Part shown: positions 2,903 through 53,772 of the stretch, in pieces | Position numbering within the stretch: the stretch's first letter is position 1 | Layout: each line of letters opens with the position of its first letter | NCBI GenBank assembly: GCA_918241715.1 | Contig: CAKJYB010000022.1 | Span: 1 to 53,818, forward strand | DNA from: Clostridiales bacterium | GTDB taxonomy: Bacteria; Bacillota; Clostridia; Christensenellales; UBA1242 | Length of the DNA stretch: 53,818 bases | Reading direction: 5' to 3' | Position numbers and translations under genes: made by a program | The notes under the pieces: model-generated | The model's database searches: none | What the model was told of the DNA's origin: nothing | Seen by the model: only the letters and a program-made list of their open reading frames with translations

Positions 2903-2935
2903 AAAAGAAGATAACAATTTATCTTCTTTTTTTTA
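2903..2935. terminator. Bidirectional rho-independent terminator between convergent genes
   Basis: AAGAAGATAA (2905-2914) and TTATCTTCTT (2919-2928) form a perfect 10-bp stem with loop CAAT. An A-run flanks one side and a T-run (to 2934) the other. Confidence 0.75.
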
Positions 2936-9711: not shown

Positions 9712-10658
9712 AAGTATTTTACCTCCAACATTCTCATAAGGAAATTGTCAATTAAAACCGAAAAGTTTGCATTAAATTCAAGTTTTTCTCTCAAAGACAA
9801 AATAAGTTTTGATATTTCGCAGAGAGCTTCTATTGAATACTCCGGCTCAACGTCCTTAAGCTCTCTCAAAAAAGGCGTAAGTTTGCACAACGCTTCACTT
9901 TCACATTTAATTTTTATGACATCTTCAATGCAAAGAGAAAGCACTTGTACAATCAACTCAAAGTTTTGAATATAGCCAGAAACGCCTTTTGAATATTTTA
10001 AAACATCTTTGCTTGACTTCATTTTTGTAAACAATTCTACCGAAAAATTTACAATCGGCTTCAAATTTTCGTTGTTTTCAAGCTCAAAAGTCTTTCCAAT
10101 ATATCCACCACCCAAAATCCTTGCAAGTTCGTTTGAACTAAACTTTTCAATATCTTCTTTGGAAAGTGGTGCTATTTTTATTTTTTCACAACGGCTTCTT
10201 ATCGTTGGCAAAACCCTTGCTTCATTTTTTGCGCTTATCAAAAAGAAAACATTTTTTGGTGGCTCTTCCAAAATTTTTAAAAGTTTGTTTTGTGCTTCTT
10301 CAGTTGAAACATCAATATTGTTTACAACAAAAATCTTGTATGGCAAATTTACCGGTTTGATGTATGCTTCTGCAACAATGTCGTTTGAATCTGCCACCAA
10401 CAATTTTTCATTGTTCTTTGGATAAGTTTTTACGTCCAAATCAACGCCACTTTCAACCCTAAAAAATTCTGCGCTGTTTTCGTCAAACAAATCAAACATT
10501 TTGTATTCAAGAAGAAGTGCCGTCATTGTCAAAACTTTTTTGCTTGTGTATTCGTCTTCACACAAAAACATAATGGAGTTTGAAAGAGTGTTTTTTTCTT
10601 TCTTCTCCACCAAATTTTTAAAAAAATCTTGGTTTTTTATTGTTTCGACAAATCCCAT
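9702..10658 (-). CDS. holB: DNA polymerase III delta-prime subunit (divergent, degenerate P-loop)
   Basis: KLLKILEEPPKNVFFLISAKNEARVLPTIRSRCEKIKIAPLS carries the clamp-loader sensor motifs (LEEPP, TIxSRC). The holB-yaaT-yabB order is conserved. Confidence 0.85.
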   Translation of the reverse strand: MGFVETIKNQDFFKNLVEKKEKNTLSNSIMFLCEDEYTSKKVLTMTALLLEYKMFDLFDENSAEFFRVESGVDLDVKTYPKNNEKLLVADSNDIVAEAYIKPVNLPYKIFVVNNIDVSTEEAQNKLLKILEEPPKNVFFLISAKNEARVLPTIRSRCEKIKIAPLSKEDIEKFSSNELARILGGGYIGKTFELENNENLKPIVNFSVELFTKMKSSKDVLKYSKGVSGYIQNFELIVQVLSLCIEDVIKIKCESEALCKLTPFLRELKDVEPEYSIEALCEISKLILSLREKLEFNANFSVLIDNFLMRMLEVKYLCK

Positions 10659-10664
10659 ATACTG

Positions 10665-10693
10665 ATTTTATCATAATTGCGTCCAAAAAGCAA
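10665..10693 (-). promoter_or_regulatory. sigA-type promoter of holB-ricT-methyltransferase: -35 TTGCTT, 17 nt, extended -10 TGATAAAAT; ATG 7 nt after the -10 (leaderless geometry)
   Basis: Reverse complement of 10656-10693 is TTGCTT-N17(ending TGA)-TAAAAT-cagtat-ATG. No SD is present. Confidence 0.55.
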
Positions 10694-10718
10694 AAAAATT
10701 GCATTATTCAAAATGCAA
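10692..10718 (-). terminator. Weak rho-independent terminator at the end of the ATPase gene, fused to the holB promoter
   Basis: On the minus strand TTGCATT-ttgaat-AATGCAA (7-bp stem, 10699-10718) is followed by T7. The stem includes the last codons (KKLHFE*), and the T-run runs into the -35 TTGCTT. Confidence 0.4.
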
Positions 10719-32203: not shown

Positions 32204-32234
32204 GGAAGACTCCTTGACACAATATGTCATTATT

Positions 32235-35198: not shown

Positions 35199-36293
35199 CT
35201 AACTAACAATTGTAAGACCTTTTACCATGTTTACAAAGCCTGGTAAAGTTATCTTTAAAAACTGCTCTATTTTTGCAAAATCAATTTTTGCCATCTCATT
35301 TTTCTTGGCATATTTGTCAATGCTTGCATCATAATACTTTACAATATCTGCAATATTCAAGTCTTTGAGTGCCTTATAATAATTCTCTGCTTCTTCAAAA
35401 AATTCTTCTGTTCTGTTTAAAAGGGTTTTAACTTCTTGTGAGCTCAAGTGCTTGTAGTTTGTCTCTTCTGACTTTTCTACAATATTTGTTTTGTATTCGC
35501 CAAATCTCTTCTCTATCAAGGAAACAATGGCATCAAGATCTTCACTTCTACCTTTGTAAATATTCCACAAAATCTTTGTTGAAATTTCTTGAATCATAAA
35601 ATTGTTGTAAACTGGAAGCAACTTTGCTTGAATGTATTTTTTTATTGTCCCCTTGTTGTCTCCCGCATTTTTTATTGTTTTTTGTATCTCTGTCATTTCA
35701 ACAACTTTTGCAAGAGATTTTGACAAATTTATGTTTTTGTTTACAAGGTTTCCAAACTCTTTTTTGAGTGTCATAAGCTGGTATTCGTCTGATTCTTCTG
35801 AAAGCGCCGTTTCACCATTAAATTTTTGAAAATAGTTGTTTACTTGTTTTAATTTTTTTACAAAAACCTTTATTTCGGCAGTGTATTTTTCAATGTTGTC
35901 ATTTAAAACTTTTAATTGGTTTTTTACATCTTTGCTTATTTCTTTGTCTTTAATATTGTCAATAATAAGATCTTTGTTGTCGTCTATATAAGAACTTGAG
36001 ATATTTAAAAGGACAACGTATTTTTCGGTAAGTTCTTTATATTCTTTGTATTTATCTTCTTCGCTATTTATATATCCTTGTAAAACACTTCCGTAAGAAA
36101 CCCAATATTTGCCACTAGAACTTGGATTGCTATAATTCGTAAATACTTCGTCATATTTTTTGTATGTTGAATCCAATGTGCTGAAAGACGCCTTGACATC
36201 TTTTATGCTGGTGCCACATCCTGCCATTGTTATACTTGAAAAAATTGCAAAGATTGTTAAAAACAAGCTCAATATTAAGCCTTTCTTCTTCAT
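35199..36293 (-). CDS. Hypothetical lipoprotein, helical and Lys/Glu/Asn-rich (364 aa)
   Basis: MKKKGLILSLFLTIFAIFSSITMAGCGTS is a signal peptide with lipobox MAGC. AGGGGGA SD. It ends only 8 nt before gltX. No family recognised. Confidence 0.75.
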   Translation of the reverse strand: MKKKGLILSLFLTIFAIFSSITMAGCGTSIKDVKASFSTLDSTYKKYDEVFTNYSNPSSSGKYWVSYGSVLQGYINSEEDKYKEYKELTEKYVVLLNISSSYIDDNKDLIIDNIKDKEISKDVKNQLKVLNDNIEKYTAEIKVFVKKLKQVNNYFQKFNGETALSEESDEYQLMTLKKEFGNLVNKNINLSKSLAKVVEMTEIQKTIKNAGDNKGTIKKYIQAKLLPVYNNFMIQEISTKILWNIYKGRSEDLDAIVSLIEKRFGEYKTNIVEKSEETNYKHLSSQEVKTLLNRTEEFFEEAENYYKALKDLNIADIVKYYDASIDKYAKKNEMAKIDFAKIEQFLKITLPGFVNMVKGLTIVS

Positions 36294-36302
36294 GTTTCCC
36301 CC

Positions 36303-37142
36303 TTACAAATCCCCGTCAATGAAAGTAGAATAATAGCTACTATCTGCGCCGTTTGTTTTTATGTCTTTAACTTTGTTCTTTTTTTCTTCTGTTGTGTATT
36401 GGTATGCAATAATTTCTTTCTCTGCATACACAATCCCATCTCCATCTTCTACAAAATATTTTTCTGTAAACTTCAAAAAGTCGTCTCCAACATCTTCTGT
36501 TGTAAGTTTTGTTTTTACATCTTTTGAAAGGTTTTTAATTCCCAAGAAGATTATGTCAGAATAATCATTGTTGAGCAGATTTGATTTTACGCTGTTTTGA
36601 TAAATTTTTGCACAAATATTGAAAGCGTCGATTGTCTTGGAAAGGAAATTTTTCATGTCTCCCTTTACATCTTCCCATGCTCTCTCTTCCCAGTAAGCAT
36701 CTCCAGAAGTCTTTTTGTTGTTTTCTTTTATCCTTTTGATAAGGCCGTCAACATATTTTTGTGCACTCTTAAGAGCATCTTGGACATCTTTTCTGTTGTC
36801 TTTGTAGTATTTTGTGTATTCCATAAAGTTGATTTCTCTGTTGAAGAAATCAGCAACATACAAATATCCTTCATAAGCGCTTTTAATATTATTTACTTCG
36901 TTTCTTTTTTCATTGTCAGTAAGCGTAGATGAAAGTTTTTCAAGGTAAGACTTTATTTGGTTGTGGTCAGAAGATGCAGAATTTGATGCTTTCAAATATC
37001 CCGTCGTAACATAATCGTTTACACTTTCTGCAAGAGCTGACGTATCTTTCTTTTTGAAAAGCGTAAAGAAAACCACGCCAAGTATTGCGGCCAAAACAAC
37101 AATTATTATTGTTATAAACAAAACTTTTCTGCCACCTTTCAT
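36303..37142 (-). CDS. Hypothetical N-terminally membrane-anchored helical protein (279 aa)
   Basis: MKGGRKVLFITIIIVVLAAILGVVFFTLFKKK is a single N-terminal TM helix. AAGGAG SD. It starts 23 nt after dnaB. Its composition resembles the neighbouring lipoprotein. Confidence 0.75.
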   Translation of the reverse strand: MKGGRKVLFITIIIVVLAAILGVVFFTLFKKKDTSALAESVNDYVTTGYLKASNSASSDHNQIKSYLEKLSSTLTDNEKRNEVNNIKSAYEGYLYVADFFNREINFMEYTKYYKDNRKDVQDALKSAQKYVDGLIKRIKENNKKTSGDAYWEERAWEDVKGDMKNFLSKTIDAFNICAKIYQNSVKSNLLNNDYSDIIFLGIKNLSKDVKTKLTTEDVGDDFLKFTEKYFVEDGDGIVYAEKEIIAYQYTTEEKKNKVKDIKTNGADSSYYSTFIDGDL

Positions 37143-38905: not shown

Positions 38906-38939
38906 ATAAGAAATATTTTTGGTTTTAGGTGGTGAAAAA

Positions 38940-39935
38940 ATGGCTGACAAAAAGACAACACTTCTTCTTAGAGCATTAGAAAATGGAAATTTGAAAAGTG
39001 CAGAACGCTTACTTAAAAAAGGTGCAGATTTAAATGCGACATTTGATGGAGTTCCTGCACTCTTTAAAGCATATGGCATTGACCTTAAACATGACAATTT
39101 CAATGCAACAAGTTTTTTTATTGATAATGGTGCAGATTTAAACATTAAAGACAAAGATGGCAACACCCTTTTGCTTGTTTCTCTCGATTTAAATTATTTT
39201 GGAAATTCTGATAGCCAAGACAAAAGACTAGAAACTATAATTCGCATTTTAAAATTTTTGTATCGCAAAATTGCAACAGACAAAAATGTCAATTTTAACG
39301 CTGTTGGAAAAGATGGACGTTCTTTTGTTTCTAAGCTTTCTACAAGCGCTATTATCAACAAGAAAAGTCCTGCAAGATTGTACTGCCTTGTTTTGTTGTC
39401 AACGCTATTAAAAAATGGTGCAAGTGCAAATATCCCTTCTAGGGGTGGAAAGCTTCCACTTTATGCTGCTGTAACAGGAAAAGATTTTCTTTTGGCAGAA
39501 ATTCTTGCCCCATACACACTTCAAAACACAAATTATATTGTAGAGAATGGCAAGCTAGAAAACGACAGATTCTGGACATGGCAAATGCTCGGTGGAAACC
39601 AAATTGGAACAGCAGAAACATTTGTGGTCCTTGACAAGTTTAGAAACACAATCCTCTTGAAACTTGCAAACGAAGAAACAAAAACACCTTATACAACAGA
39701 CAGAACAAACAGAGACTTGGCTCTCTTTCAAGAATTGTTTGGCAAACTTCAACCAGAGCAAAAATGGGTTGACAAAGACCACGAAAGATACCTTGCATAT
39801 ATAAATCAAGCAAACACCTATGGAAAAGAAGTTGAAGAACAATTCCACACTCTTGCTCCACAAGCAAACATTCCAACTCTTAGACTTGAAGCTCTTGAAG
39901 CGACAAAGGTTGGCCCAGACGGAAATGGAAAATAA
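38940..39935 (+). CDS. Ankyrin-repeat protein (331 aa) with a non-ANK C-terminal ~130 aa
   Basis: LLRALENGNLKSAERLLKKGADLNA, FFIDNGADLNIKDKDGNTLLLVSL and LLKNGASANIPSRGGKLPLYAAVTGKDFLLAEILA fit the ANK consensus (G-x-TPLH-AA...LL..GA..N). No signal peptide. Start moved to MADKK behind the AGGTGGTG SD. Confidence 0.8.
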   Translation: MADKKTTLLLRALENGNLKSAERLLKKGADLNATFDGVPALFKAYGIDLKHDNFNATSFFIDNGADLNIKDKDGNTLLLVSLDLNYFGNSDSQDKRLETIIRILKFLYRKIATDKNVNFNAVGKDGRSFVSKLSTSAIINKKSPARLYCLVLLSTLLKNGASANIPSRGGKLPLYAAVTGKDFLLAEILAPYTLQNTNYIVENGKLENDRFWTWQMLGGNQIGTAETFVVLDKFRNTILLKLANEETKTPYTTDRTNRDLALFQELFGKLQPEQKWVDKDHERYLAYINQANTYGKEVEEQFHTLAPQANIPTLRLEALEATKVGPDGNGK

Positions 39936-41882: not shown

Positions 41883-42749
41883 TTACAAGATTTTTCTTGT
41901 TTTTTCTTTCTTTTTCTCTTCTCTTTTTGCAATAAGAAGAGCAACTCCCGTCCCAATCAAAACCAAAACAAGAGTCAAAATGTAAATTGCCCCTTTGTTT
42001 AGGTTTGTTGTCCAAAACGTGATTTTTTCTCCATTTTCAATCTCTGCAATTGATTTTGAAAAAACGTTGTGATGGAAGCCGTTTTCGTCATACATATCTT
42101 CCGACATAAGAGTTTTTGATTTTGATGCAAAGTCGTAAATATAAGTGGCGCCATCTAAATTTTTTAAGACCAACTCTTTTTTCTCTTCCAAAATATCACA
42201 TTCTTTGCACCAAGACAAAATTGCCAAGTTGCAGACTGATTTAAAATTTTCTGCAGATTCTTTTGTCGAAATTGGAAAATCGGTTTCTAGGTAGGTTTTT
42301 TGCAAAAATAGACCCTTTGTCTTTCGTTTTGTCTGTGTTGTTTTGTCTCCCGTCTCTTTTGTCTCAAAAAATGCCTTTTGGGCTTCAACGTTAGCAAAAG
42401 AAATTGTAAATCCTATTCCATCAATGTCGACATAATATAGACAAGGCCCAACACTGACGCCGTCAATCTCTTTGTCTTTGTTTGCCTTTTGAAGTGCGTT
42501 TACATAAACGGAAAGATAGAATTTGTATGTTGCAAATTCTTTTTCTGAAAAGTTGTTTTTGACAAATTCTGTGTTGACAGGAAAGATATAAGACACAAAA
42601 ATTTTGTTTTCGGCATCAATTTTTCTTACAATTCTAAAAGAATTCTTCTCAAGTGCGTTTGTTTTTGCACAAGCAATATTTTCTTCTTTAAATCCCCCAA
42701 GACAGACAAATGTCAGCAACAAAAAAAGAGTATAAATAGTTTTCTTCAT
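41883..42749 (-). CDS. Hypothetical exported protein with signal peptide and C-terminal TM tail anchor (288 aa)
   Basis: MKKTIYTLFLLLTFVCLGGF... at the N-terminus. The C-terminus is GAIYILTLVLVLIGTGVALLIAKREEKKKEKTRKIL (TM helix plus KR tail). It starts 29 nt after the stop of the 3,637-aa gene. No clear SD. Confidence 0.75.
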   Translation of the reverse strand: MKKTIYTLFLLLTFVCLGGFKEENIACAKTNALEKNSFRIVRKIDAENKIFVSYIFPVNTEFVKNNFSEKEFATYKFYLSVYVNALQKANKDKEIDGVSVGPCLYYVDIDGIGFTISFANVEAQKAFFETKETGDKTTQTKRKTKGLFLQKTYLETDFPISTKESAENFKSVCNLAILSWCKECDILEEKKELVLKNLDGATYIYDFASKSKTLMSEDMYDENGFHHNVFSKSIAEIENGEKITFWTTNLNKGAIYILTLVLVLIGTGVALLIAKREEKKKEKTRKIL

Positions 42750-42778: not shown

Positions 42779-45700
42779 TTATTCAGCAGCTACGTAAATT
42801 TCTCCCTGTCTGATTATTCCAACTCCGGTGCCAGCTGTCGTTTGTTCAACATAGTTATAGTTGTGGTTTGTGTTGTCTAATGTTCCGTCATTGTGAGCAA
42901 CAATTCCTGCAAAGTATGCAAGCCAGTCGTCTCCATCAATTGCCTGTGCAGTCATAAGTGTATAGTTTTGGCAATTTCTGATTGTGGAGTTTTCCATGTT
43001 GATTGTTGCAACGCCAGATACTTTTATTTCGACCGTTTTATCTTCTCCCAAAACTTTAAACGTTGTTGAAACTCCTGAAGTTCCAATCACGCAGTTTTCA
43101 ACTCTTGCATAGTTTACCGAAACGATACCTGCAATGCAGTTTCTTTGAGAGTTTCCATAGGTGTTTACAATCATGTCTGCTGTGTTGTGGCAGTTTGTGA
43201 TAACTGCAGAACCACCAATGTTGATTGAAACAAGTCCTGCATACAACATGTCAATTTCTCCACCAGCAATATTTCCTTGCAAGTTTGTTGAGAAGTTTAC
43301 AAGGTTTACGTTGTCGATTTGTCCGTTGTTTGTGATTGCAAGGCCGGCAAACAATGAGTTTTTGGAAATTGTCCCGGACTCCTTGTTGTAAGTTATGTCA
43401 AGGTCAATGTTCTTTATCACTGCTCCGTCAGCAAGTTTTTCAAACAAGGCAATACCCTTTGCAAACCTGTCTGTTGTGCTTGAAAGGTGTCTGTCAATAA
43501 TGATTTCTGAAGAAAGATTGCCAATGTCGATTGCAGTATAAGTAATCTTATAGTTTCCGGTATTGTTTGCATATCTTCCATCAATCACGCCACCAAATTC
43601 ATTTCCAAACAACATTCCAGAGAAGTTGTCAAGTGTGATGTCGTCGATAAGTTTGAAGTAGAACACGCTTTCTTCCGTGATTTGAGATCCGTTTTCAACG
43701 TATTCAGTCCAATCTATATCTTTCTTCATACGCATTGAAAGATTCATAAATTGTTGTTTTGTTTTGATGTAGTATGGTTTGTTTTCTGTTCCGTCTGAAA
43801 CAAGATTTCCACCAGCTTGATTGTTGAGATTTTCAAACAAGTTGAATTCAACGGAATAGATTTTTTCTCCAGGAACATTTTCTATATAGAATCTTGTCTC
43901 TGCCGATTGAATGTTTGTTGGGCCAAGTTTGATTCTGAGTCTAAGTTCAACTTGAGTGTCAATCAATGTTGGTTTGAAGTGATTTTGAAGTGTTGTGTAT
44001 GTTCTTGTTATACCAGCATCTTTGTATTTTACTTCAACAATATATGTTGGTCCAATTGCATCTGTTTTTGCAATTCTATAAAGTTTTGTTGTTTCAACTT
44101 CTTCGACCTTTACGTCGGCTTCAATCACAACTTCTGATCCAATTTCTTCAACAATTGTATACAACGTTCCGGCTGAGAGTGTTGCGTCTCCAATTTCGGT
44201 ATAACTGGATCCGTCAACTTCAACTTCTACGGCTTCAACGCTTGATTGAATTGAATATTTGCCATCATATTCCCATTCAAATTGTTGAATGTTTGGATCC
44301 CATGCAATAAGTCCGTCCCATTGTGCACGTTGCAAAACAATGTCTTCTGTCTGGTCAGAATAAAGGTGTCCACTTGCCGTTGTAATTGCTTTCATAATCA
44401 CTTGTTGAGATCCGTCCGTTATTGTGATAATTCCGGCAATATTGCTTCCTGTTGGCAATGTTTCTACATCCCCTGACAAGATATAGAGCAATGTTTTTGT
44501 CCTTGTAAATATGATGTCTTCTACTTCCAATCCCGTCCTGTCTTCAAGGTTTGTCTCTATCGTCAAATTGATGTCTTGATATCTTGCAAAGTATGCCGAA
44601 ATATCAAGGATTTCAATTGAAGAATTTGTTGTTGATGTGATTGCAAAGTCTTCTTCTGTGATTGTTTTAAGTTTTGTTATTTCAACTTCTGCGCCATAAG
44701 ATCTTATGATATGTTTTGTATCATCAAGTCTTGTTGCATAGATTGTAAGAGTTTGAGCACCCTCACTGATTTGTCCAAAGTTTTCGTTGAACGTGATAAA
44801 GAATTTTGTTCCAACAATGTTGTTGTCTCCGTCTCTTACATATTCTGTATCGTTTGAAACAACACATTCTCCTTCGACTTCTTCCAATGCTTCGTCGACA
44901 ACTGCAAATTGATATTCTTGAAGCAAGTCATAGTCGATATCTGCTTGTCCGTCCACAACAAATTCCCAAACAAGTTTTCCGTTTGAAACTCTTGCGTTTT
45001 CAACTTTTTGTGTTCTTTCAATTTCGTTTAAGCTGTTTGCTTCACTCATCAAAACGTAGGTGTTTGTCTCTTTGTATTGAACATTTCCAAAGGCATATCC
45101 ACCTTCAACAAGTGGAAGACAATCGTCTTCACTCAATCCTTCTGGAATTTCTGCACCAACTTTCATTGCAAAGGCTTTTACGCTTGCTTTGAGATATTTT
45201 ACATCAGCATCACTTGCAGACTCTGCAACGTTGGAGAAGTCAAACAAGAGTTTTGTTGTGTAGAAGTATTGAATTGAATCAAGGATTGTTTCTGTTTGTC
45301 CAATGCTTGTGTTTGATACTTTATATTTTGCAACTGCAACTCTATAAACGACGTCAACGTCTGGATTGAGAATTAAGTCGCTTCCTTCCTGCTCTGTTCT
45401 GCCTTCAACAGCATTCCAAGAGAGCATTCCGTTTGTAATTCCTATTCCGTCTGCCATATCCATCATTCTTGCATTTGTTTCTTTGTATTCACTTGAAACA
45501 ATCATTCTCTTCAAGGATTTTACGCCATCTTCCATTCCGTAAATTGTTTTGATGTAATAGTCAGCACCTTCTTGGAAGAATCCAAATTCTGCCGTTGATC
45601 CAATTGAAGAAACATAGAATTTAGCTGCATTGTTTTCTGTTTCTCTATAGCCATAATCTGCATCGTGTTCGTCAAGATCATTTACTCCCGTTTCATACAA

Positions 45701-48700
45701 TACAGGTTTTGATGCTTGATGTGTGTCTGTGATTGACATATAAGAATTTGATGTTGAAACATCATTATAAACTCTGTAAGTAAAGAGTGGTGAAGATGAG
45801 AATCCGTCCAAAAGTTTTTCTCTGTTTGCGCTGTCGTTGATTGACAAATAACCTTTGTTGTTTTGAACTACAGGCATAACAAGTTTGTATACATCTTCTA
45901 TTCTGTAGATTTCACTATCAACACCAATTGCGTTTCCGTTGATTTCTCCAATTGTAATAAATTGGATATAATCATACATACCGCTTCCACCATTTTCAAT
46001 GTTGAAACTTAAAGATCTCAAACTTCCGTCCAAAACTTCAACTTGTTCTGTCAAGCTGTCGTTTCTCTTATAGACAACAGTTGTGTTTTTGTTTGCTTGG
46101 GTCGTCCATGTAAAGATACCATTTTCGATTCCAAAGTTTTCTCCCATTCCATAGAGTGTGAGTTTGAAATATTCTGATTTGCTTGATGCCGTGATGTCGT
46201 TTCCAACAGCATACAACTCCATGCTGTAAGAACCCTTTGTAATTTCGTCTCCATAAACTCCAAGAAGAGAGTCGTTGTTGTGGTGATTGATGTAGAACAT
46301 CAAATAATTTCCATCAACTTGAATATTTCCGTTTTCGTCGGTTTCATAAACTGAAACAGAATTTACATTTTCTGAATCAAGCATTCTCAAGCTATATGTG
46401 TTTACAAGTTTTTGAATTGTAAAGATCATTGAAGTTCCCACATCGTTGTAAACTTTAAGAACATAATCTTCTGTTGTTTGTTGTGCGTATGTATCGTCAT
46501 ACAAATAACTCTTTCTAAGAATAATCTTATAGTGATTTACAGCCATTGAAGATGTTGTTTCTCTGACCGGTCTTACGCTTGGCTCCTGTCCAACATAAAC
46601 AACATTTTCGCCGTTTGTGTTGCTGAATTGATACCAATAAGAATTGAGTGTTTTGTTTCCACCAACCATGCAGTATTCAAGAGAGTATCTTCCAAGTTGA
46701 ATTGCTTCAAAGTAATCATCAAAAATCTTTCCTACACTTGCAACACCATGATTGCCGTTTTTCATAAGTTCCTTAAACTTTGTAAGGTTGCTTACAATTT
46801 GCGTCTCTCCAATCTTGGAAATCAAAATGTCAATCTTATCTTCAAGTGTTGGGTCAATATCAAAGATGTTTGAAACCAAATCTTTTGCGTTTACTTCAAC
46901 ACTCTTGATTGTTGTGGTTGAACCTTCTTCTTGAGTAAATTTAAATCTGATTTTTATCTTGTCTTGAACAAGGTCTGCAATAGTAAATGTAAATGGATAG
47001 TTGTAAGTCTTTGCAACAAATTCTCTTGCCTTTGGAGCAGTTATGTCTTCAACTGCTGAAAGTTTTTGTATAAAGTCTCCGTTTGATTCCCATTCAAAAT
47101 AGAATTTTCCGTTCTGCAAAACAAGTGGTGATTTTATCATGTTTTTTGTCACCTTTACAGGTTCACCATCTTCGGACACATAAACAAGTGCCGATGGCAA
47201 AACGTTTGGATCTTCGTTTACTGCTTGAATTGCAATATAGTATGCCTTGTTTTGTCCAACAAAGTCTGTTGCAGTAAATCTTTCGTCTTCAACTTCAAAT
47301 CTTGTAAAGTCGTCTCCCATTTCTCCATCAACAAGTTCTTCAACAAAGTATACATAATATTTGTCGTCTGTTTGAGAACTATGTGTCCAAGAAAGTTGTC
47401 CTGAAGAAAGGTTTAATCTTCTTATATTTTCAACTCTGTCAAATTCAAGATAATCGTCTGTTGCTGACAACCAGTTTGAAATTCTGATTTGTCCAAGACT
47501 TGTTATTTGAAGAGTTGCAATATCAACTCTAAAATGTCCAAACTGCTCTTTAAGCAATTCTGTCTGTTCAAAGAGTTTTGTAAGGTTGATTATGTAAGAG
47601 TTTGCTCCTTGATAATAATCAGAAGTAAGGTCTGTAACGTATGTCGTAACAACTTCGTCTTCTTCGTTGATAACTCTCACAAACACACCCGTAAAGAAAT
47701 ACGTTCCACTTGGCTTGTCAAGGAAGATGTGTGCTGTTGCATAATCTGTCTTGAAGTCAGAGCCCGGTGTCTGTTCGTATTTTTCAACTTTGTCATATCC
47801 ACAACTTTCAACGTATGTAAATTGATATGATACTGAGGAATTTGTGATGTAGTTTGTTTCTTCTGAAAGTGGCTCTTGATATGCCCAGAAGTAAAGTGTT
47901 ACATTTCCGTATGGTGTGTCGCCATATTCTGTTGAAAGAATGTCCAAAAGTTTTTGTCCGGAAATTCTGTAAACAGCTTGAACGTCAACATCTCTTACGT
48001 GTTGCACTTCAATTTCACTAACTTGTCCGTTTTTAAGTGCGTCTTCTGAAACACCAAAGAAGATTGTGTCAAATCCATCTTTTCTGATGGTCAACGCAAG
48101 TCCATCGGTAATTCCAAGGTCAATTCCAACAGACTCAATTGCAACTCCCATTTCAAACTTAAACATCTTGTCTGCCGTTGTAAACACTGCAGAATCAAGA
48201 ATGAAGTCTGAGCTTGTTGAACTCCCAGAGATATTCCCCAAAACAAGAATTTCAAGGTTTACCTTTGCACCAACATTAAGTTCTGCTCCCAAGAAACTTG
48301 CATCAATCTTAAGTTGGTTTGTTTCAGCTTCCACAATTGTCCATGGAGAGCATGTGATTGCTTCTTGTGATCCGTTTACAAATCTGTAAAGATATTTTGT
48401 TCCTGCAACTACATCAATAGTTACAATGCCATATTCGTTTACTGCAACATCTTCAACAGAATTTCTGTTTCCTTTGATTGTTGCATTAAACACATATTCT
48501 GTTGAATTGTTTGCGTTTGCATTTTGTCCAATTGCAGAAATTCCGATTCTTACGTCCAAGTCGTTTGGTATGCTACTTATTTCTCCGTAAGCAACAACTT
48601 TTGAGAAATTCTTTCCAAAAATATCAAGCGTTGTGTGAGAATTTCCTGTAAGTTGTGTTCTGAAAATCACACGATCATCTTCGTCATACATTTTCAAAAC

Positions 48701-51700
48701 ATACCCAGAAGCACTTGCTATTTGCGTCCATTGAAGAGTTACTTCTGAAAGGTCCGTTGTGTCTCTTGATATAGACACGCTTGTCACTGGGTCGATTCTG
48801 TCAAGCACAAAGTTTATTGTGTTTGGAACAGATTGAACGTAGTTTCTTTCTGTTGCATAAAGTTTTAAGTCATAACTTCCGTTTTCCCATGATGTGTCAA
48901 ATTCAAAGAAGAACTTGTCGTCTCTATAACTTACTTCATAAACAGAAGACAAGTATTCAACAACATACATAGTTGATGTTCTGTTTAAATCTTCGTCAAT
49001 TTCAAAACCTGCAGAAGTGTTTGTTATGTTTGCAACTTTGACAGAACTCAAAACATTGTATTCTGCACTTTCCATATATTCTGCGCAAGCCAAGTGGTAA
49101 ACTTTGTTTGAATCGTCAGCCGAACTTTTTGTTGTGATTGCAACTTTGATTTTTCCACCATCTGAAAGGTTTGTCGCAATAAAATCTGCAAGAGAATATT
49201 CCACCCTGTTTGTTATGTCTGCAACAGGAATTGCAAGGTATTCCGTTATTACTTCGGTTTCTCCTGCCTTTGTGTATGTAATTTTTGCAACAAGGCCACC
49301 ATCAATCAAGTCGGTGTGGCTTTCGTCAATTCCCACAACAATCTTTTGTGTATATTTTCTGTCAACAGCTTCAAATTCTACACTTGTGATTTTTGCAGCA
49401 CGAACAACATTTACGCTTCCCATTGAAGATGGAATGTCCGTTTCGCTAAGTGCAAAAATTTTGATTGTTGCTTGTGCCCCAAAGGCAATCTTGTTGTTGT
49501 ATACGTCGCTTGTGATTGTGTATGTATAAACCCCGTCTGCCTTTGTGATGTTTGTTGTTGCAAGAACATCATTATTTAAGAGAATTCTAAATTTTCCATT
49601 GTTGTCATAATTTCCTGTAAATTTTACAACAATGTCTGGTTCGTTTGCCTTTGACAAATCATTTTCGTCGTCAAACGCCAAAGAACTTATCACTGGCGTT
49701 GTGAGTTTTTTGATTGTAAGTGGTGAGTTGTATTCAAAGTAGTTTGCTTCTGTGTTTCCGTTTTCAAGTTGTTGCGCTAAGGCATAATAAACGTTTCCAC
49801 CTGCAACAACTTCATATGTTTCAAGGAAAGCATAGACAACAATGTCAATATTTCCTTCTTTCAATGCCGAAATCGTTGTGTAAAGTTGGGTGTTTGTGCT
49901 GAAGTTTAATGAATGTTCCGTTGTTGTGTAAACAGCAACATTTTCTCCGTCATTAAACATCACTGCATATTTAAGTTTTGAAAGCCCAACGCCTTCTGCA
50001 AATTCGTCCCAAGAAAGTATGTTGCTTGCATATGATACAACAACTGATGCAGGAGCAAGTGTGGACATGTTTGTAAGTGTCCAGTTCTTTGTTTCGCTGT
50101 CAAGATATGACGTCGTCATGTCTCCACTTGTCAAACCTTTCTTCCCAACAACTTTAAGGCTGATTGTTCCGTTTCCAGAAACGTCAATCTTTCCTGTTGT
50201 GTTGTGGTCGTTTGCTCCAACCAAAACATAATCTACAAAGCCTTGTTCTTCTGCTTTGATTTGATATTCAAGTTTTCCGTCAAACTCTCCACCAGAAATC
50301 ATTTTGATTTTGTTGATAGAATCAAGTTTGTAAATTCTTATTGTGTTTGAATTGTTGGAATCCATATAATATGGATTTTCTGCAACAACATAGAATGAAT
50401 AATATGTTGACAAATCAAATTCTGAAAGAGAATAAGATGCCGTTGTTGCACCAGAAATTGGCCCACCATATTCTTCTCCGTTTACATACATTTGATATGT
50501 TGTGTGTGCTGCAGCAGCTGTGCTTGTTGCAACTTCTTCCCAATTGAATATGATGTTTGCCCCTGAAAGTTGATATTCAATTTCTGGGCTTGACATTTTT
50601 TCAACTTTTGCAACTTTCTTGCTTGCATCTGCTTTGAGTGTTGCATATTGTGAAACAAGTTTGTCAACATTTGTGTTTGGCATAGAATAGATTGCAAAGC
50701 CATAGTCAACAGCGTTGTTGTAAGCATGATTTATTTCACTGTTTTCTGCATTTTTAAGAAGATTTACAATTCCGTCTATGTCTATTGTTGCAACACCAGA
50801 AATTGTTTCAACAAAATCATTTGTGTCGCTGAGAGTTTCTTCTGTGTCTTCATAAATTGCAACAACATCTTCTGTCAAAACAACTTTTATGTTTTCAACA
50901 ACATTGTTTGAATTTCTGCACAAAACATTTATTGTATAACCAGATGTTCTAACAGATTCTGCGTTTTCAACAATCAATTTTCCGTCTTCATATTCAAAGT
51001 TTGACAATGTTCCAAGTCTTGTAAATGTAAGATTGCTTACTTCGCTGTCAAGGAAGATTTTGTGGTCTTCAATTCCAAAATATTCTCCTGTCTTTGTTGA
51101 ACCATAATATTTGAAACTTAAATCAATTGTAGAGTATCCAGTCAAGTCAAAACTTGCAGTCCTTGCTGATGCACTTCCTGCGCAGTTGTTTTCGTCTGCT
51201 GTTTCCCAGAGTTTTACTCCCTTTGCGTTCTCCACTGCTTCAATATGAAGTTTTTGCTCTGTGTTTGAAGTGTCAACATTGTAATATCTGTCCACAACAA
51301 AAGTCCAGTCATCAATCGACACGTCTGCTTTTGTTATTTGTGGAAGTTTCTTTATTGTCAAATTGTAGTCGTCAGAATCCAAATACAAATCACCATCGTT
51401 TGAATGAGCAGTAATTGCAACTACGTATGTCTTTGACGTGTCCATAAATGTCTGCGTGAGTGTGTATTTGCTTGTCTGTCCGGCAACAACAGAATTTGTA
51501 ATTCTAAATGTGTCTATTGCAATTTCAAAGCTGTCAACATTTTCTGTGTTTTCAACTTCCAAATAATACTTTTCTTCTACGGCATCATAACCAAACTTAA
51601 CTTGCCCTACTTCAAGTTGAACGGCAACACAAACAAGCGCTTTAAGGGCCTGTGTTGCAGAAATATAAACGTTTTCATTTCCAGACAAAGCATAAACTTC

Positions 51701-53692
51701 TACATAATAATAGCCCTCTTCGTCAAAGTCGTATCTGTTTTCGTCAACAACTTGTTCGTCAACTTCAAGACCTGTTGTGTCAATGTCTGTTGAGCCAGAA
51801 TCGTATGTAGCCTTGTCAATCTTGTATGCAAGAACTCTGTAAGACCCAACATTTTCGTCTTCCGTCCATGTGCAGAACATGTCTGTATTTTGTCTTGCAA
51901 CCATTTCAGGAACATCAAGTTCTGTCAAGGTCTTTTCAAAAGAAGAGTTTATTGTTGTGCTGTCGTTGTTTGTTTTTGCAACAATTTTTGTTGTTATCAC
52001 TCCGTCTTGCATGTATGTTCTCAAAACATCTTCAATCTTTCCCGTAAGTTCAATAACAACATTGTTTTCACCAACTGATACGCTGTAATATGTTTGTGCA
52101 AGTTTTCTATATTCTTCTCCGTCCAAAACATACATTTCATATTTTGTGGCATTTTCAATCTTTGCAAGAGTAAATGTTGACTTGTCGTTTGCGTAAGCGT
52201 GCATCACGTTTACAATATGAGCAAGTTTGTTTACTTGAATTTCATCTGTAGCATCAGAGTTGATTGCAAAAACAACATCATCTCCAGAAGTATAACTTTC
52301 ATTGTTTGGAATGTGTCTTCCTGATATTGTGTAAACGCCAACTTGAGAAAGTTCCAATGTGAGATTCTTTCTTGTAACACCAGAAGAGAATCCTTCTTTT
52401 CTTACACTTGTTCCAGAAACGTCCATGATTATACTTGTTTCGTATGGAGTTGTGCTTCTTGCAACAAATCCCCACGTGTTGGAGTTTTCTTCGTTGTTGT
52501 TTGCTCCGGTGATTGTCATTGGAGCAAGTTTGTAAAGATTTTCTACCTTTGCAGAACTGCTCTTGAAATAATATCCTTCAATAGGGTGAGCAATTATTTC
52601 TACGCTAAAGAGCCCTGCATCAATTCCATCAAACGTAAGTTCTATATCTTCGGCTTCAGTTGTCAACGTTCTTGTTTCAACGTTTTCATTTGCTGAAATT
52701 TTGATTTCATAATTTAATATATGTTCTTCATTTCTAAAGCAAACTCTTCCACCAAGATCTTCGTCAAAAGAATATTCTGCCGTCGGTGCAGAAAGTTTTA
52801 AAACTTGCACTTCTTCACTTCTTGTTGGAAGTTTTTCTCCAGCCAAATCATAGCAAACAACTTCAATTGCGTGTGACCCACCTTCAGCGTTTGTCATATA
52901 TTCTGCAATATTTGCAGTTGTTGCTGAAAGGAAATCTCCAAGGACTACTCCGTCCAAAGAAACTTTGTATCTTGCATTTTCAACTCCTTCCCATGTCAAC
53001 GTTCCGTCGTTTGTCCACTCTATATCTTCAGCAAGGATTTGTGGCATTGCGCCATAGTAGAATGTGATTTCTTCTGATTGTTCACTTGAATCAAAGTATC
53101 CTTTTCCAACAGCAGAAACTTTGAGTTTGTAAATTCCAAATTCTGTTGGAACATATTTGTTTGTAGAAACCGTTGTGTCTATTTCTCTTTCTCCGGTAGG
53201 CTCTCCATCTCTGGAAGAAACAAGGGTGAGATTTCCAAAAACTTTGTATTGTGAAGCAATTGTTGGTGCTTCGTCATCTTGATAGAAATCAGAAACAACA
53301 TTCCATGTAAACTCTCCATTTTCTGAAAGGAGTTTTCCGTTTTCGTCAACGTTAAATCCTGTAGGAACGGAGAATGTGTCTTTTACGACAATATGTAATT
53401 TTGCCAAAACGTTTGAGCTGTATGTTGCATAAAGATATGTTGCGCCTTTGTTTTCTGCTCTGACAACGTTTCCTTCAACAGAAACAATTGTCTTGTCTTC
53501 ACTCTTGACAACAACATTTTTTATATTTCCACTGACCTTGAGATAGTCTTTCAAATTTATCGTTTCACCAACAGATAAAAGTTCTTCACTTGTGGTGAAG
53601 TCGGCTTTTGGACTTCTGCCAGAGCAGGCAACAAGTGTTGTTCCCAGCACAATGAGCAGAAGAGACATAATCATTAAACGAAACTTTTTCAT
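42779..53692 (-). CDS. Giant (3,637 aa) surface lipoprotein: lipobox signal, Big_2-like domain, long FN3/Ig-like module array, C-terminal GLUG-type beta-helix
   Basis: An uninterrupted 10.9-kb frame with AGGAG SD 6 nt upstream of the ATG at 53692. MKKFRLMIMSLLLIVLGTTLVACSG has lipobox LVAC. Module signatures are listed in the sub-features and findings. No C-terminal TM and no LPXTG. Confidence 0.9.
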   Translation of the reverse strand: MKKFRLMIMSLLLIVLGTTLVACSGRSPKADFTTSEELLSVGETINLKDYLKVSGNIKNVVVKSEDKTIVSVEGNVVRAENKGATYLYATYSSNVLAKLHIVVKDTFSVPTGFNVDENGKLLSENGEFTWNVVSDFYQDDEAPTIASQYKVFGNLTLVSSRDGEPTGEREIDTTVSTNKYVPTEFGIYKLKVSAVGKGYFDSSEQSEEITFYYGAMPQILAEDIEWTNDGTLTWEGVENARYKVSLDGVVLGDFLSATTANIAEYMTNAEGGSHAIEVVCYDLAGEKLPTRSEEVQVLKLSAPTAEYSFDEDLGGRVCFRNEEHILNYEIKISANENVETRTLTTEAEDIELTFDGIDAGLFSVEIIAHPIEGYYFKSSSAKVENLYKLAPMTITGANNNEENSNTWGFVARSTTPYETSIIMDVSGTSVRKEGFSSGVTRKNLTLELSQVGVYTISGRHIPNNESYTSGDDVVFAINSDATDEIQVNKLAHIVNVMHAYANDKSTFTLAKIENATKYEMYVLDGEEYRKLAQTYYSVSVGENNVVIELTGKIEDVLRTYMQDGVITTKIVAKTNNDSTTINSSFEKTLTELDVPEMVARQNTDMFCTWTEDENVGSYRVLAYKIDKATYDSGSTDIDTTGLEVDEQVVDENRYDFDEEGYYYVEVYALSGNENVYISATQALKALVCVAVQLEVGQVKFGYDAVEEKYYLEVENTENVDSFEIAIDTFRITNSVVAGQTSKYTLTQTFMDTSKTYVVAITAHSNDGDLYLDSDDYNLTIKKLPQITKADVSIDDWTFVVDRYYNVDTSNTEQKLHIEAVENAKGVKLWETADENNCAGSASARTASFDLTGYSTIDLSFKYYGSTKTGEYFGIEDHKIFLDSEVSNLTFTRLGTLSNFEYEDGKLIVENAESVRTSGYTINVLCRNSNNVVENIKVVLTEDVVAIYEDTEETLSDTNDFVETISGVATIDIDGIVNLLKNAENSEINHAYNNAVDYGFAIYSMPNTNVDKLVSQYATLKADASKKVAKVEKMSSPEIEYQLSGANIIFNWEEVATSTAAAAHTTYQMYVNGEEYGGPISGATTASYSLSEFDLSTYYSFYVVAENPYYMDSNNSNTIRIYKLDSINKIKMISGGEFDGKLEYQIKAEEQGFVDYVLVGANDHNTTGKIDVSGNGTISLKVVGKKGLTSGDMTTSYLDSETKNWTLTNMSTLAPASVVVSYASNILSWDEFAEGVGLSKLKYAVMFNDGENVAVYTTTEHSLNFSTNTQLYTTISALKEGNIDIVVYAFLETYEVVAGGNVYYALAQQLENGNTEANYFEYNSPLTIKKLTTPVISSLAFDDENDLSKANEPDIVVKFTGNYDNNGKFRILLNNDVLATTNITKADGVYTYTITSDVYNNKIAFGAQATIKIFALSETDIPSSMGSVNVVRAAKITSVEFEAVDRKYTQKIVVGIDESHTDLIDGGLVAKITYTKAGETEVITEYLAIPVADITNRVEYSLADFIATNLSDGGKIKVAITTKSSADDSNKVYHLACAEYMESAEYNVLSSVKVANITNTSAGFEIDEDLNRTSTMYVVEYLSSVYEVSYRDDKFFFEFDTSWENGSYDLKLYATERNYVQSVPNTINFVLDRIDPVTSVSISRDTTDLSEVTLQWTQIASASGYVLKMYDEDDRVIFRTQLTGNSHTTLDIFGKNFSKVVAYGEISSIPNDLDVRIGISAIGQNANANNSTEYVFNATIKGNRNSVEDVAVNEYGIVTIDVVAGTKYLYRFVNGSQEAITCSPWTIVEAETNQLKIDASFLGAELNVGAKVNLEILVLGNISGSSTSSDFILDSAVFTTADKMFKFEMGVAIESVGIDLGITDGLALTIRKDGFDTIFFGVSEDALKNGQVSEIEVQHVRDVDVQAVYRISGQKLLDILSTEYGDTPYGNVTLYFWAYQEPLSEETNYITNSSVSYQFTYVESCGYDKVEKYEQTPGSDFKTDYATAHIFLDKPSGTYFFTGVFVRVINEEDEVVTTYVTDLTSDYYQGANSYIINLTKLFEQTELLKEQFGHFRVDIATLQITSLGQIRISNWLSATDDYLEFDRVENIRRLNLSSGQLSWTHSSQTDDKYYVYFVEELVDGEMGDDFTRFEVEDERFTATDFVGQNKAYYIAIQAVNEDPNVLPSALVYVSEDGEPVKVTKNMIKSPLVLQNGKFYFEWESNGDFIQKLSAVEDITAPKAREFVAKTYNYPFTFTIADLVQDKIKIRFKFTQEEGSTTTIKSVEVNAKDLVSNIFDIDPTLEDKIDILISKIGETQIVSNLTKFKELMKNGNHGVASVGKIFDDYFEAIQLGRYSLEYCMVGGNKTLNSYWYQFSNTNGENVVYVGQEPSVRPVRETTSSMAVNHYKIILRKSYLYDDTYAQQTTEDYVLKVYNDVGTSMIFTIQKLVNTYSLRMLDSENVNSVSVYETDENGNIQVDGNYLMFYINHHNNDSLLGVYGDEITKGSYSMELYAVGNDITASSKSEYFKLTLYGMGENFGIENGIFTWTTQANKNTTVVYKRNDSLTEQVEVLDGSLRSLSFNIENGGSGMYDYIQFITIGEINGNAIGVDSEIYRIEDVYKLVMPVVQNNKGYLSINDSANREKLLDGFSSSPLFTYRVYNDVSTSNSYMSITDTHQASKPVLYETGVNDLDEHDADYGYRETENNAAKFYVSSIGSTAEFGFFQEGADYYIKTIYGMEDGVKSLKRMIVSSEYKETNARMMDMADGIGITNGMLSWNAVEGRTEQEGSDLILNPDVDVVYRVAVAKYKVSNTSIGQTETILDSIQYFYTTKLLFDFSNVAESASDADVKYLKASVKAFAMKVGAEIPEGLSEDDCLPLVEGGYAFGNVQYKETNTYVLMSEANSLNEIERTQKVENARVSNGKLVWEFVVDGQADIDYDLLQEYQFAVVDEALEEVEGECVVSNDTEYVRDGDNNIVGTKFFITFNENFGQISEGAQTLTIYATRLDDTKHIIRSYGAEVEITKLKTITEEDFAITSTTNSSIEILDISAYFARYQDINLTIETNLEDRTGLEVEDIIFTRTKTLLYILSGDVETLPTGSNIAGIITITDGSQQVIMKAITTASGHLYSDQTEDIVLQRAQWDGLIAWDPNIQQFEWEYDGKYSIQSSVEAVEVEVDGSSYTEIGDATLSAGTLYTIVEEIGSEVVIEADVKVEEVETTKLYRIAKTDAIGPTYIVEVKYKDAGITRTYTTLQNHFKPTLIDTQVELRLRIKLGPTNIQSAETRFYIENVPGEKIYSVEFNLFENLNNQAGGNLVSDGTENKPYYIKTKQQFMNLSMRMKKDIDWTEYVENGSQITEESVFYFKLIDDITLDNFSGMLFGNEFGGVIDGRYANNTGNYKITYTAIDIGNLSSEIIIDRHLSSTTDRFAKGIALFEKLADGAVIKNIDLDITYNKESGTISKNSLFAGLAITNNGQIDNVNLVNFSTNLQGNIAGGEIDMLYAGLVSINIGGSAVITNCHNTADMIVNTYGNSQRNCIAGIVSVNYARVENCVIGTSGVSTTFKVLGEDKTVEIKVSGVATINMENSTIRNCQNYTLMTAQAIDGDDWLAYFAGIVAHNDGTLDNTNHNYNYVEQTTAGTGVGIIRQGEIYVAAE
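42782..43815 (-). other. C-terminal GLUG-type / right-handed beta-helix-like domain of the 3,637-aa protein
   Basis: GTENKPYYIKTKQQFMNLSMRM...FKLIDDITLDNFSGMLFGNEFGGVIDGRYANNTGNYKITY..., then periodic turns FAGLAITNNGQIDNVNLVNF, LYAGLVSINIGGSAVITNCHN, IAGIVSVNYARVENC and FAGIVAHNDGTLDN. Confidence 0.6.
53405..53605 (-). other. Big_2-like (bacterial Ig-like group 2) domain
   Basis: LLSVGETINLKDYLKVSGNIKNVVVKSEDKTIVSVEGNVVRAENKGATYLYATY fits the Big_2 pattern (L.vG.t..L......n..v.w.Ssd..iatV...G.v.a...G.a.i.a). Confidence 0.6.
53624..53692 (-). other. Lipoprotein signal peptide (Cys23 lipidation site)
   Basis: MKKFRLMIMSLLLIVLGTTLVA|CSGRS: basic n-region, hydrophobic core and L-V-A-C lipobox. 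Confidence 0.8.
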
Positions 53693-53742
53693 AACAACTC
53701 CTAAAACGTTTTGGAAAATATGTCCATCTTATAGTCAAAATT

Positions 53743-53772
53743 ATTTTATCACTTAACACATCTTTTTATCAA
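53743..53772 (-). promoter_or_regulatory. Candidate promoter of the 10.9-kb gene (-35 TTGATA, 18 nt, extended -10 TGATAAAAT)
   Basis: Reverse complement of 53743-53772 is TTGATA-N18(ending TGA)-TAAAAT. It would give a leader of about 45 nt with AGGAG. Confidence 0.4.

Follow-up and report, generated by a model that had tools for sequence, protein, structure and literature searches.

A giant predicted lipoprotein of gut Clostridia with an FN3/Ig-like stalk and a terminal beta-helix shared with M26 IgA1 proteases: probably a long-reach adhesin or tether

GhpA, a protein of 5,898 amino acids (aa) with 52 Ig-like repeats, forms an appendage of 240 nm (bioRxiv 10.1101/2024.01.29.577165). The N-terminal domain (NTD) of the IgA1 protease consists of a small subdomain joined to a compact beta-helix (PMC7695701). 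Likenesses to both were found in a single gene of a Clostridiales bacterium (GTDB lineage Bacteria; Bacillota; Clostridia; Christensenellales; UBA1242). The gene lies on contig CAKJYB010000022.1 of GenBank assembly GCA_918241715.1, and the whole stretch analysed, positions 1 to 53,818 of the forward strand with a length of 53,818 nucleotides (nt), is called the window. A complete open reading frame (ORF) of 3,637 aa occupies 42779..53692 on the minus strand. An earlier note, made from the sequence alone, had reported a 3,637-aa gene at exactly these positions; an uninterrupted reading frame, an ATG start and a Shine-Dalgarno sequence AGGAG (53698..53702, minus strand) with a 5-nt spacer to the ATG were found. 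The product, here called the giant protein, is likely a lipid-anchored surface fibre of ~400 kDa with an FN3/Ig-like stalk and a beta-helix end, acting as a long-reach adhesin or tether. Its family, so far without annotation and confined to one clade of gut Clostridia, is interpretable only via a family alignment and structure prediction.

The family was uncovered by an exhaustive phmmer search with the last 1,200 aa against 1.84 billion representative proteins. The search gave 60 matches, one of them the query itself. Full-length proteins account for 48 of the matches (3,126-4,041 aa, 22-43% identity). A word-indexed protein search misses the family: nothing was found with the last 388 aa, and a C-terminal family profile retrieved only two distant helix-only proteins. 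GTDB genomes scanned with a back-translated pattern of the giant protein gave no match, nor did tblastn with the tip in a phage collection, and Foldseek against viral structures returned generic FN3 tail proteins only. In a MAFFT alignment, the 48 full-length members are collinear throughout, with a mean identity to the query of 0.16-0.37 per 100-aa block. This indicates a fixed architecture and not a variable-number repeat array. The best-conserved stretch is not the tip; it is located at aa 2300-2700 (identity 0.33-0.37) and contains the motifs PFTFT, FDxxFExxQxGxYxLEYC and YLMFYLNxN. Its first part, aa 2300-2437, is without internal-repeat signal and may form a distinct functional domain. 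The core of the tip, aa 3300-3500, reaches an identity of 0.33-0.34 versus 0.16-0.25 in many stalk segments. An internal-thioester domain (TED) reading of 'LEYC...TLxSxWY' at ~aa 2338-2352 was rejected, since its Cys does not belong to the columns that are invariant or conserved at >=90% and the spacing does not fit. The thioester motif requires a Gln, which is absent from this segment.

Structure prediction on tiles had been proposed in the earlier note. AlphaFold2 (AF2) models were obtained from family alignments for aa 1-1200 and aa 2438-3637. The mean predicted local distance difference test score (pLDDT) was 84.9 and 85.6, and the predicted template modelling score (pTM) 0.40 and 0.55, respectively. 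Both tiles are almost all beta, and together they yielded confident tandem beta-sandwich models and a terminal beta-helix.

The C-terminal end starts with a beta-rich subdomain at aa 3152-3297 (43802..44239, minus strand), recognised in the AF2 model and in the alignment by the motif P.YIVE.TY...R.YTTT..F.PTIIG. A helix cap follows at aa 3299-3323 (43724..43798, minus strand), supported by AF2 and by the match to PDB 3n6z described below. It combines a G-T-x-x-x-P-Y-x-I strand with a QFxN(I/L)xxRMxK helix. The PY motif is placed at aa 3306-3307 and the modelled strand-helix cap at aa 3307-3320; G3301, Y3307, F3315 and R3321 are invariant in an alignment of 13 relatives. The beta-helix itself, its handedness left aside, is modelled at aa 3330-3601 (42890..43705, minus strand) as ~8-9 coils of short-strand triads with a pLDDT of 85-98. 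Five GLUG-like units at aa 3449-3608 (42869..43348, minus strand), identified by the pattern [AS]G[ILV][AV]..N....[ILV].N[CVT], start at aa 3449, 3485, 3521, 3559 and 3595 with a period of 36-38 aa. A profile self-comparison detected a two-coil internal repeat in the helix at 95% probability.

Alignment A1 comprises the last 470 aa of the window protein and of proteins from 35 loci. Its consensus reads FNLFxSGxGTxxNPYxIxNxxQFxNIAYRMxK ... GILFxGEFxGxIxGN ... LFE in the first part, AGLAIxNxGxIxNVNL ... YSGxVSIN...IxNC ... VGGIxYTNYAxIxxC in the middle and QVAGIxxTN...NCxN ... YIAGI at the end. The A1 profile matches residues 38-63 of PDB 3n6z_A, a 'putative immunoglobulin A1 protease', at the cap motif (E 7e-4). 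A comparison by hhalign with a 663-aa protein of PF05342 (Peptidase_M26_N) gave 97.9% probability over 285 columns (E 4e-13). Foldseek aligned the C-terminal model with the IgA1 protease of S. pneumoniae (6xja_P, 7uvl_P) at a probability of 1.0 over ~530 columns. The described layout of the IgA1 protease NTD matches the aa 3152-3297 subdomain plus helix of the giant protein. These matches and the five repeats bear out the PY-cap and GLUG-like beta-helix that the earlier note had read at the C-terminus, and the homologue search it had proposed, once run, placed the tip with the GLUG / M26-N helix. The giant protein thus shares a homologous helix with the M26 IgA1 proteases, without their catalytic part. 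No HExxH motif was found in the giant protein, whose chain stops 4 residues past the match to the C-terminal domain; it does not qualify as an M26 protease.

A catalytic role of the helix was considered. The giant protein might present a pectate-lyase-like or glycan-cleaving helix, or form part of a degradative machine, with the stalk as holder. Polysaccharide lyases and hydrolases are common among right-handed beta-helices, the homologous helix sits in a protease, and the polar residues R154, K157, E251, D344 and Q390 of alignment A1 are conserved. The nearest detectable relatives, however, are the non-catalytic M26-N / GLUG helices. A protease domain is missing along with the HExxH, and no carbohydrate-active enzyme or lyase family was matched in Pfam, NCBIfam and PDB sequence searches. 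An enzyme scaffold is therefore considered quite unlikely.

The C-terminal domain is present in 48/48 full-length members and ends at most 28 residues from the C-terminus in 38 of them. In ten distant full-length relatives the helix is followed by an additional module of ~85-120 aa, with tails of the type '...GYYLRIQ...ASIGR' (extra-module relatives P0047, P0050, P0052-P0054 and P0056-P0059). Consequently, the distal end is not identical across the whole family.

The stalk is preceded by a first small beta-sandwich at aa 29-103 (53384..53608, minus strand), defined by AF2 strands. The earlier note had called this region Big_2-like. A small all-beta domain is indeed predicted; its Big_2 membership is unproven, as Pfam Big_2 (PF02368) gave no match on the giant protein and profile A5 (aa 24-112) matched intimin, a Big_2-type domain, in the PDB only weakly (E 0.25). 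The proximal stalk, aa 104-1185 (50138..53383, minus strand), comprises ~11 FN3/Ig-like modules of ~90-100 aa according to AF2, Foldseek and profile self-similarity at 70-94% probability. Module counts in the stalk, like the coils of the helix, are readings of the AF2 strand list. A middle region, aa 1201-2437 (46382..50092, minus strand), is outside the AF2 tiles and shows an FN3-like signal at ~1200-1700 and 2040-2115. The distal stalk, aa 2438-3151 (44240..46381, minus strand), consists of beta-sandwich modules that are FN3-like by fold (AF2, Foldseek).

Several lines of evidence point to a tandem FN3-like stalk. Foldseek searches of the PDB with the N-terminal model gave the GhpA neck (9flp_A, E 5e-21) and the GhpA base (9fly_A, 2e-14) as top matches, followed by contactin, ROS1/Sevenless, gp130, OSMR, leptin receptors, LAR, fibronectin and alpha-2-macroglobulins. 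The C-terminal model matched tandem FN3 receptors and fibronectin (E 7e-8 to 1e-3). A full-length family profile produced six weak matches to PDB sequences (E 0.02-0.4). Four of these are solved FN3 domains covered over the whole domain length, with FN3 matches at profile positions 1030-1109, 1635-1712 and 2086-2156, where the earlier note had marked W...Y motifs. All ten motif strings quoted there occur in the translation. A strict regular expression, [LIFVM]xW...Yx[VLIF], matched 9 times versus 2.8 +/- 1.5 times in 200 shuffles (maximum 8), a modest enrichment. Much stronger evidence is the conservation of the motif tryptophans: W130, 234, 609, 1051, 2102, 2201, 2529, 2759, 2909 and 3140 are invariant or >=90% conserved across 13 relatives of 22-40% identity. 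The profile-profile self-comparison revealed module similarity at 65-95% probability for aa 120-1700, ~2040-2115, 2460-2620 and 2700-2785, with modules of ~95 aa. Scanned singly against Pfam, the 13 relatives gave sub-threshold matches to DUF4992 in 5/13 (22 bits versus a cut-off of 29, on FN3-like modules), to Big_13 in 2/13 and to fn3 in 1/13 (E 0.005). Tandem beta-sandwiches of ~90-100 aa with a conserved Trp and Tyr agree with the FN3 fold, which has such residues in strands B and C, respectively. Taken from models and profiles, the tandem FN3-like stalk covers about two thirds of the chain, and the remainder is presumably built alike. For the modelled tiles, the tandem beta-sandwich stalk anticipated in the earlier note is confirmed by the confident AF2 models and the Foldseek matches to FN3/Ig arrays.

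The alpha-2-macroglobulins among these structural matches (bacterial and human, E 5e-11 to 1e-8) raise the question of a protease trap, a lipid-anchored chain of macroglobulin-type beta-sandwiches that closes into a cage. Bacterial alpha-2-macroglobulins are lipoproteins. The TM-scores of 0.07-0.09 are those of generic tandem beta-sandwiches, and a CxEQ thioester motif is missing from the giant protein. Pfam and NCBIfam returned no alpha-2-macroglobulin match, and the giant protein is more than twice as long as a bacterial alpha-2-macroglobulin. A trap of this kind is highly improbable.

The N-terminus, MKKFRLMIMSLLLIVLGTTLVAC23SG, combines an n-region with positive charge, an h-region of 16 uncharged residues and the lipobox L-V-A-C. 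The signal peptide comprises aa 1-22 (53627..53692, minus strand) with MKKFR as n-region and L6-V21 as h-region; AF2 predicts a helix at aa 5-20. The lipobox L20-V21-A22-C23 (53624..53635, minus strand) was assigned by rule match and conservation, with Cys23 as the predicted lipidated first mature residue. Rules of the PROSITE PS51257 type demand a K or R in the first 7 residues, an uncharged h-region, [LIVM..][AGS]C and a Cys at position 15-35. The lipobox consensus applied was [LVI][ASTVI][GAS]C. The giant protein fits the PS51257-type rule, and so do 40/48 full-length relatives. In 6/8 exceptions a lipobox-like Cys is still present, in three as truncated gene calls and in three with the Cys in the h-region. 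The lipobox Cys is found ~20-23 residues past MKK in essentially every full-length member, and C23 is invariant in a 13-sequence alignment (A6) with a mean column identity of 36%. The canonical lipobox (LVA|C) claimed in the earlier note is thus in line with the rule and conserved across the family. The same note had seen no C-terminal transmembrane or sorting signal. A Kyte-Doolittle scan of the whole protein found no hydrophobic segment beyond the signal peptide, and neither an LPxTG motif (LP.[TSA]G) nor a C-terminal hydrophobic window was detected, which speaks against a sortase anchor and agrees with that claim.

Lipoprotein processing is the best reading of the N-terminus, because a plain signal peptidase I signal would not need a conserved Cys. 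Lipidation of Cys23 and retention of the N-terminus at the membrane are probable, judged from the sequence. Alternatively, the signal peptide might be removed by signal peptidase I, or the protein might be released, e.g. as a soluble agglutinin. Giant proteins of A. kunkeei have been found on cells and in the supernatant (PMC12863079), and the lipidation of Cys23 is a prediction. A shed protein remains very unlikely in view of the Cys, which has kept the lipobox position in essentially all full-length relatives despite 22-43% identity.

BipA, the product of a neighbouring gene, was used as bait and yielded 80 loci from metagenome-assembled genomes (MAGs) of uncultured gut Clostridia with a BipA identity of 80-90%. 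The sources were human, rabbit, deer, mouse and others, and the labels include Catabacter, Christensenella and Candidatus (Ca.) Caccovivens. A relative of the giant protein is encoded directly upstream in ~55/80 loci (tblastn, 22-36% identical). Most of these relatives extend past the 10-kb flank retrieved. About 10 loci with a complete flank show no uninterrupted giant ORF at that position. In close species pairs, the ratio of nonsynonymous to synonymous substitution rates (dN/dS) was 0.06-0.17 for the giant gene and 0.01-0.045 for bipA. The giant gene evolves several-fold faster than housekeeping genes, yet purifying selection is clear. Its DNA contains no tandem repeats, and short direct repeats occur at chance level only, so the earlier note, which had seen no long exact nucleotide repeats, was correct. 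BLASTP of the giant protein versus itself found no internal repeat at 1e-3. With 48 collinear relatives, conserved synteny, this dN/dS range and no DNA repeats, the view of an old, selected gene expressed in that note holds.

Between loci L064 and L068, compared over giant-gene fragments and bipA (10001-11818), the dS of the giant gene is 0.96, more than three times the dS of bipA (0.28). In the other close pairs, the dS values of the two genes resemble each other. Giant-gene alleles could have been exchanged or replaced between lineages. By BipA, the closest species representative in GTDB is 90% identical, so that the species of the window has no close representative there.

A non-specific envelope coat or spacer would be compatible with part of these data. 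In this case the protein would act as a dense acidic brush against phage, host factors or immune effectors, or keep cells apart. The mature giant protein has a computed mass of ~402 kDa and an isoelectric point (pI) of 4.4, and is rich in Thr, Ser and Asn. Its rapid divergence is expected of an exposed antigenic surface, and a second, unrelated surface protein of 6,019 aa is encoded nearby. A mere coat would not explain the terminal domain, which is universally kept and comparatively well conserved, or the collinearity of the whole architecture across the family. A coat function is accordingly regarded as unlikely.

Several observations weigh against the interpretation as a lipid-anchored adhesive fibre. 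For the single sequence of the giant protein, searches of Pfam (E <= 1), NCBIfam, PHROGs and PDB sequences gave no meaningful match. Neither fn3 (PF00041, E <= 1) nor Glug (PF07581) or M26_N (PF05342) was matched in Pfam by the giant protein; among 36 relatives, sub-threshold matches were obtained to Glug in 2/36 (0.037) and to M26_N in 1/36 (0.038). The domain scan proposed in the earlier note therefore had a divided outcome: Ig-type matches appeared below threshold in the relatives, and no Pfam match at threshold in the giant protein. The profile self-comparison gave no module signal at ~aa 1700-2040, 2100-2440 and 2760-3300. The unmodelled aa 1201-2437, overlapping the best-conserved stretch, could hold a different, functionally important domain. 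At a pTM of 0.40-0.55, the models do not fix the arrangement of the domains, which may be extended or folded back. In the IgA1 protease the helix gates the catalytic site instead of serving as a stand-alone adhesin (PMC7695701), so that homology does not transfer a binding function. Neither lgt nor lspA is located in the 53.8-kb window, and no search was aimed at the rest of the genome. The genome size assumed for the window organism comes from the labels of related MAGs, not from this contig, and its placement in UBA1242 was drawn from the same labels and a BipA identity of 80-90%. Finally, the exact 3,637-aa protein (P0003) is on record from a single contig.

The last point would also suit an assembly artefact or a decaying pseudogene. 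Independent full-length relatives of similar length are known from different hosts and assemblies, 48 in number. Together with the conserved synteny, the dN/dS of 0.06-0.17 and the absence of DNA repeats prone to mis-assembly, they exclude a recent expansion and reduce the probability of an artefact or pseudogene to a negligible level.

The preferred reading, a lipid-anchored fibre, implies the following mechanism. The giant protein would be exported by the Sec pathway. Cys23 would be lipidated, signal peptidase II would cut off the signal peptide, and the N-terminus would stay in the outer leaflet of the cytoplasmic membrane. Some 30 very diverged FN3/Ig-like modules, together with one or more unmodelled segments outside the repeats, would make up the stalk. 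Were it stretched out as other Ig-repeat fibres are, it would measure ~100-150 nm, enough to cross the wall and project far beyond. This estimate is derived from the analogy with GhpA. The free C-terminal end would carry the small beta subdomain and the beta-helix of ~300 aa, M26_N/GLUG-homologous and followed by no protease domain. This helix would be the distal working end, most probably a module whose ligand, a glycan or a protein, is displayed by a partner cell, host mucus or a food particle. The extended stalk, the surface exposure, the ligand-binding tip and the adhesin function are all predictions.

A locus with a syntenic giant gene (L022) is labelled Ca. Caccovivens, which corresponds to GTDB UBA11517 in the family UBA1242, Christensenellales (PMC8035907). 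Genomes of UBA1242 are mostly <1 Mb and devoid of most pathways for biosynthesis and of standard transporters; they are predicted to belong to obligately partner-dependent organisms (PMC12306168). On how the partners are contacted, that study goes no further than naming 'hypothetical membrane-bound proteins' (PMC12306168). With a family-typical genome size, the 10.9-kb giant gene alone would represent ~1% of the genome, and ~3% together with the 18-kb second giant gene. Position, full length and terminal domain have been kept in most relatives examined, in many species and several host animals. This conservation makes the giant gene a concrete, testable candidate for a contact device of reduced-genome gut Firmicutes. 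Because searches of Pfam, NCBIfam and PDB sequences fail to recognise the family, the ortholog that was checked bears no family annotation. Tentatively, the tether of ~100 nm may be the attachment organelle of the partner-dependent, reduced-genome UBA1242, with a tip that recognises a partner or mucosal molecule and a 288-aa neighbour as membrane-side partner. If this more doubtful proposal were true, the fibre could be likened to the grappling hook of Aureispira and to the attachment structures of Patescibacteria and Mollicutes. It would then have been kept in genomes shedding most biosynthesis because the lifestyle depends on it.

The giant gene is surrounded by housekeeping genes according to the window annotation. 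Upstream, ~50 nt from the ATG, a TG-extended promoter-like site TTGATA-18-TAAAAT was found (53743..53772, minus strand), a consensus match only (10/12). Downstream on the coding strand follow the 288-aa gene, BipA, DnaB, two uncharacterised ORFs, GltX and TrpS, then the second giant gene (6,019 aa), BacA and a P-type ATPase. In an ortholog locus (P0005), the upstream genes encode an ABC exporter pair, YabP, a pseudouridine synthase and a 156-aa protein. No dedicated secretion system adjoins the giant gene, which fits the Sec/lipoprotein route.

The 288-aa neighbour (41883..42749, minus strand) starts 29 nt downstream of the giant stop codon, and no terminator-like site was found in this gap. 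It is composed of a signal peptide, an ectodomain of ~230 aa, a C-terminal transmembrane segment and a poly-Lys tail. In 38 loci the gene is conserved along with the giant gene (24-48% identity, relatives of 270-290 aa). A lipobox is present in some relatives, and the ectodomain has no family match. The 288-aa protein is a candidate partner of the giant protein. Its 'WY'-transmembrane-poly-Lys anchor is of the same style as that of the 6,019-aa protein.

The second giant ORF (14171-32230, minus strand; 6,019 aa) encodes an N-terminal signal peptide, a C-terminal transmembrane segment and a KRNKKR tail. With this C-terminal anchor, its polarity is opposite to that of the 3,637-aa protein. Pfam recognised YDG and the Listeria-Bacteroides repeat (Flg_new, Flg_new_2) in the C-terminal half. 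BLASTP and the hidden Markov model of the tip detected no similarity between the two giant proteins. An ankyrin-repeat protein of 338 aa with a TTG start (38919-39935, plus strand; Ank_4, E 1.5e-11) is encoded between DnaB and BipA. The gene is missing at the syntenic spot in L007 and L081, the latter having a 65-aa ORF there. Free-living bacteria seldom carry ankyrin repeats, a feature often linked to host association. Between GltX and DnaB lie two ORFs (364 and 279 aa; 35199-37142, minus strand) with no significant family match; ORFs of similar size (367 and 269 aa) follow DnaB in the ortholog locus L081.

Compared with known systems, the giant protein resembles GhpA of Aureispira, and also SprB-type fibres of the type IX secretion system (T9SS), as a giant appendage with dozens of diverged Ig-like repeats and a specialised distal end. 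Unlike the protein described here, GhpA has an N-terminal hook, forms heptamers and is attached to the outer membrane by a C-terminal T9SS sorting domain. The giant protein has an N-terminal lipobox anchor and a C-terminal special domain, its relatives are labelled Clostridia, and no sequence similarity to GhpA was detected, so that the two are alike in fold only. A T9SS C-terminal domain was not seen, although no search was aimed at it; no Pfam family at all was matched, and the C-terminus is taken by the beta-helix. The NTD of the M26 IgA1 proteases (PF05342, PF07581; 6xja, 7uvl, 3n6z) shares the subdomain, a helix of ~270-300 aa, the PY cap and the GLUG-type repeats. In contrast to these proteases, the M26 catalytic domain, HExxH, G5 domains and LPxTG are lacking, and the helix is placed at the extreme C-terminus of a stalk.

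The A. kunkeei proteins Giant1-5 and the serine-rich repeat proteins are similar in that proteins of 3,000-8,000 aa occupy several percent of a small Firmicute genome, carry a distal beta-solenoid on an elongated stalk and have fast-evolving positional homologues (PMC12863079). In Giant1-5, however, the beta-solenoid is N-terminal and the wall is bound by C-terminal SH3b-like domains, and the stalks of Giant1-3 are alpha-helical (PMC12863079). The protein of the window has the reversed polarity, a lipid anchor and an FN3-like stalk, and no sequence similarity is implied. As in the MSCRAMM, SasG/Aap and Ebh adhesins, a tandem beta-sandwich stalk would project a binding domain beyond a monoderm wall. 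Those adhesins differ by an N-terminal ligand region and a C-terminal LPxTG or transmembrane anchor, and in many of them the DNA repeats are nearly identical. With its predicted lipid anchor at the N-terminus and its beta-helix at the C-terminus, the giant protein reverses the polarity usual for Gram-positive adhesins. By the absence of a T9SS-type, LPxTG or SH3b anchor, its reversed polarity and a sequence without detected similarity, the giant family stands outside the GhpA/SprB, MSCRAMM/Ebh and A. kunkeei families.

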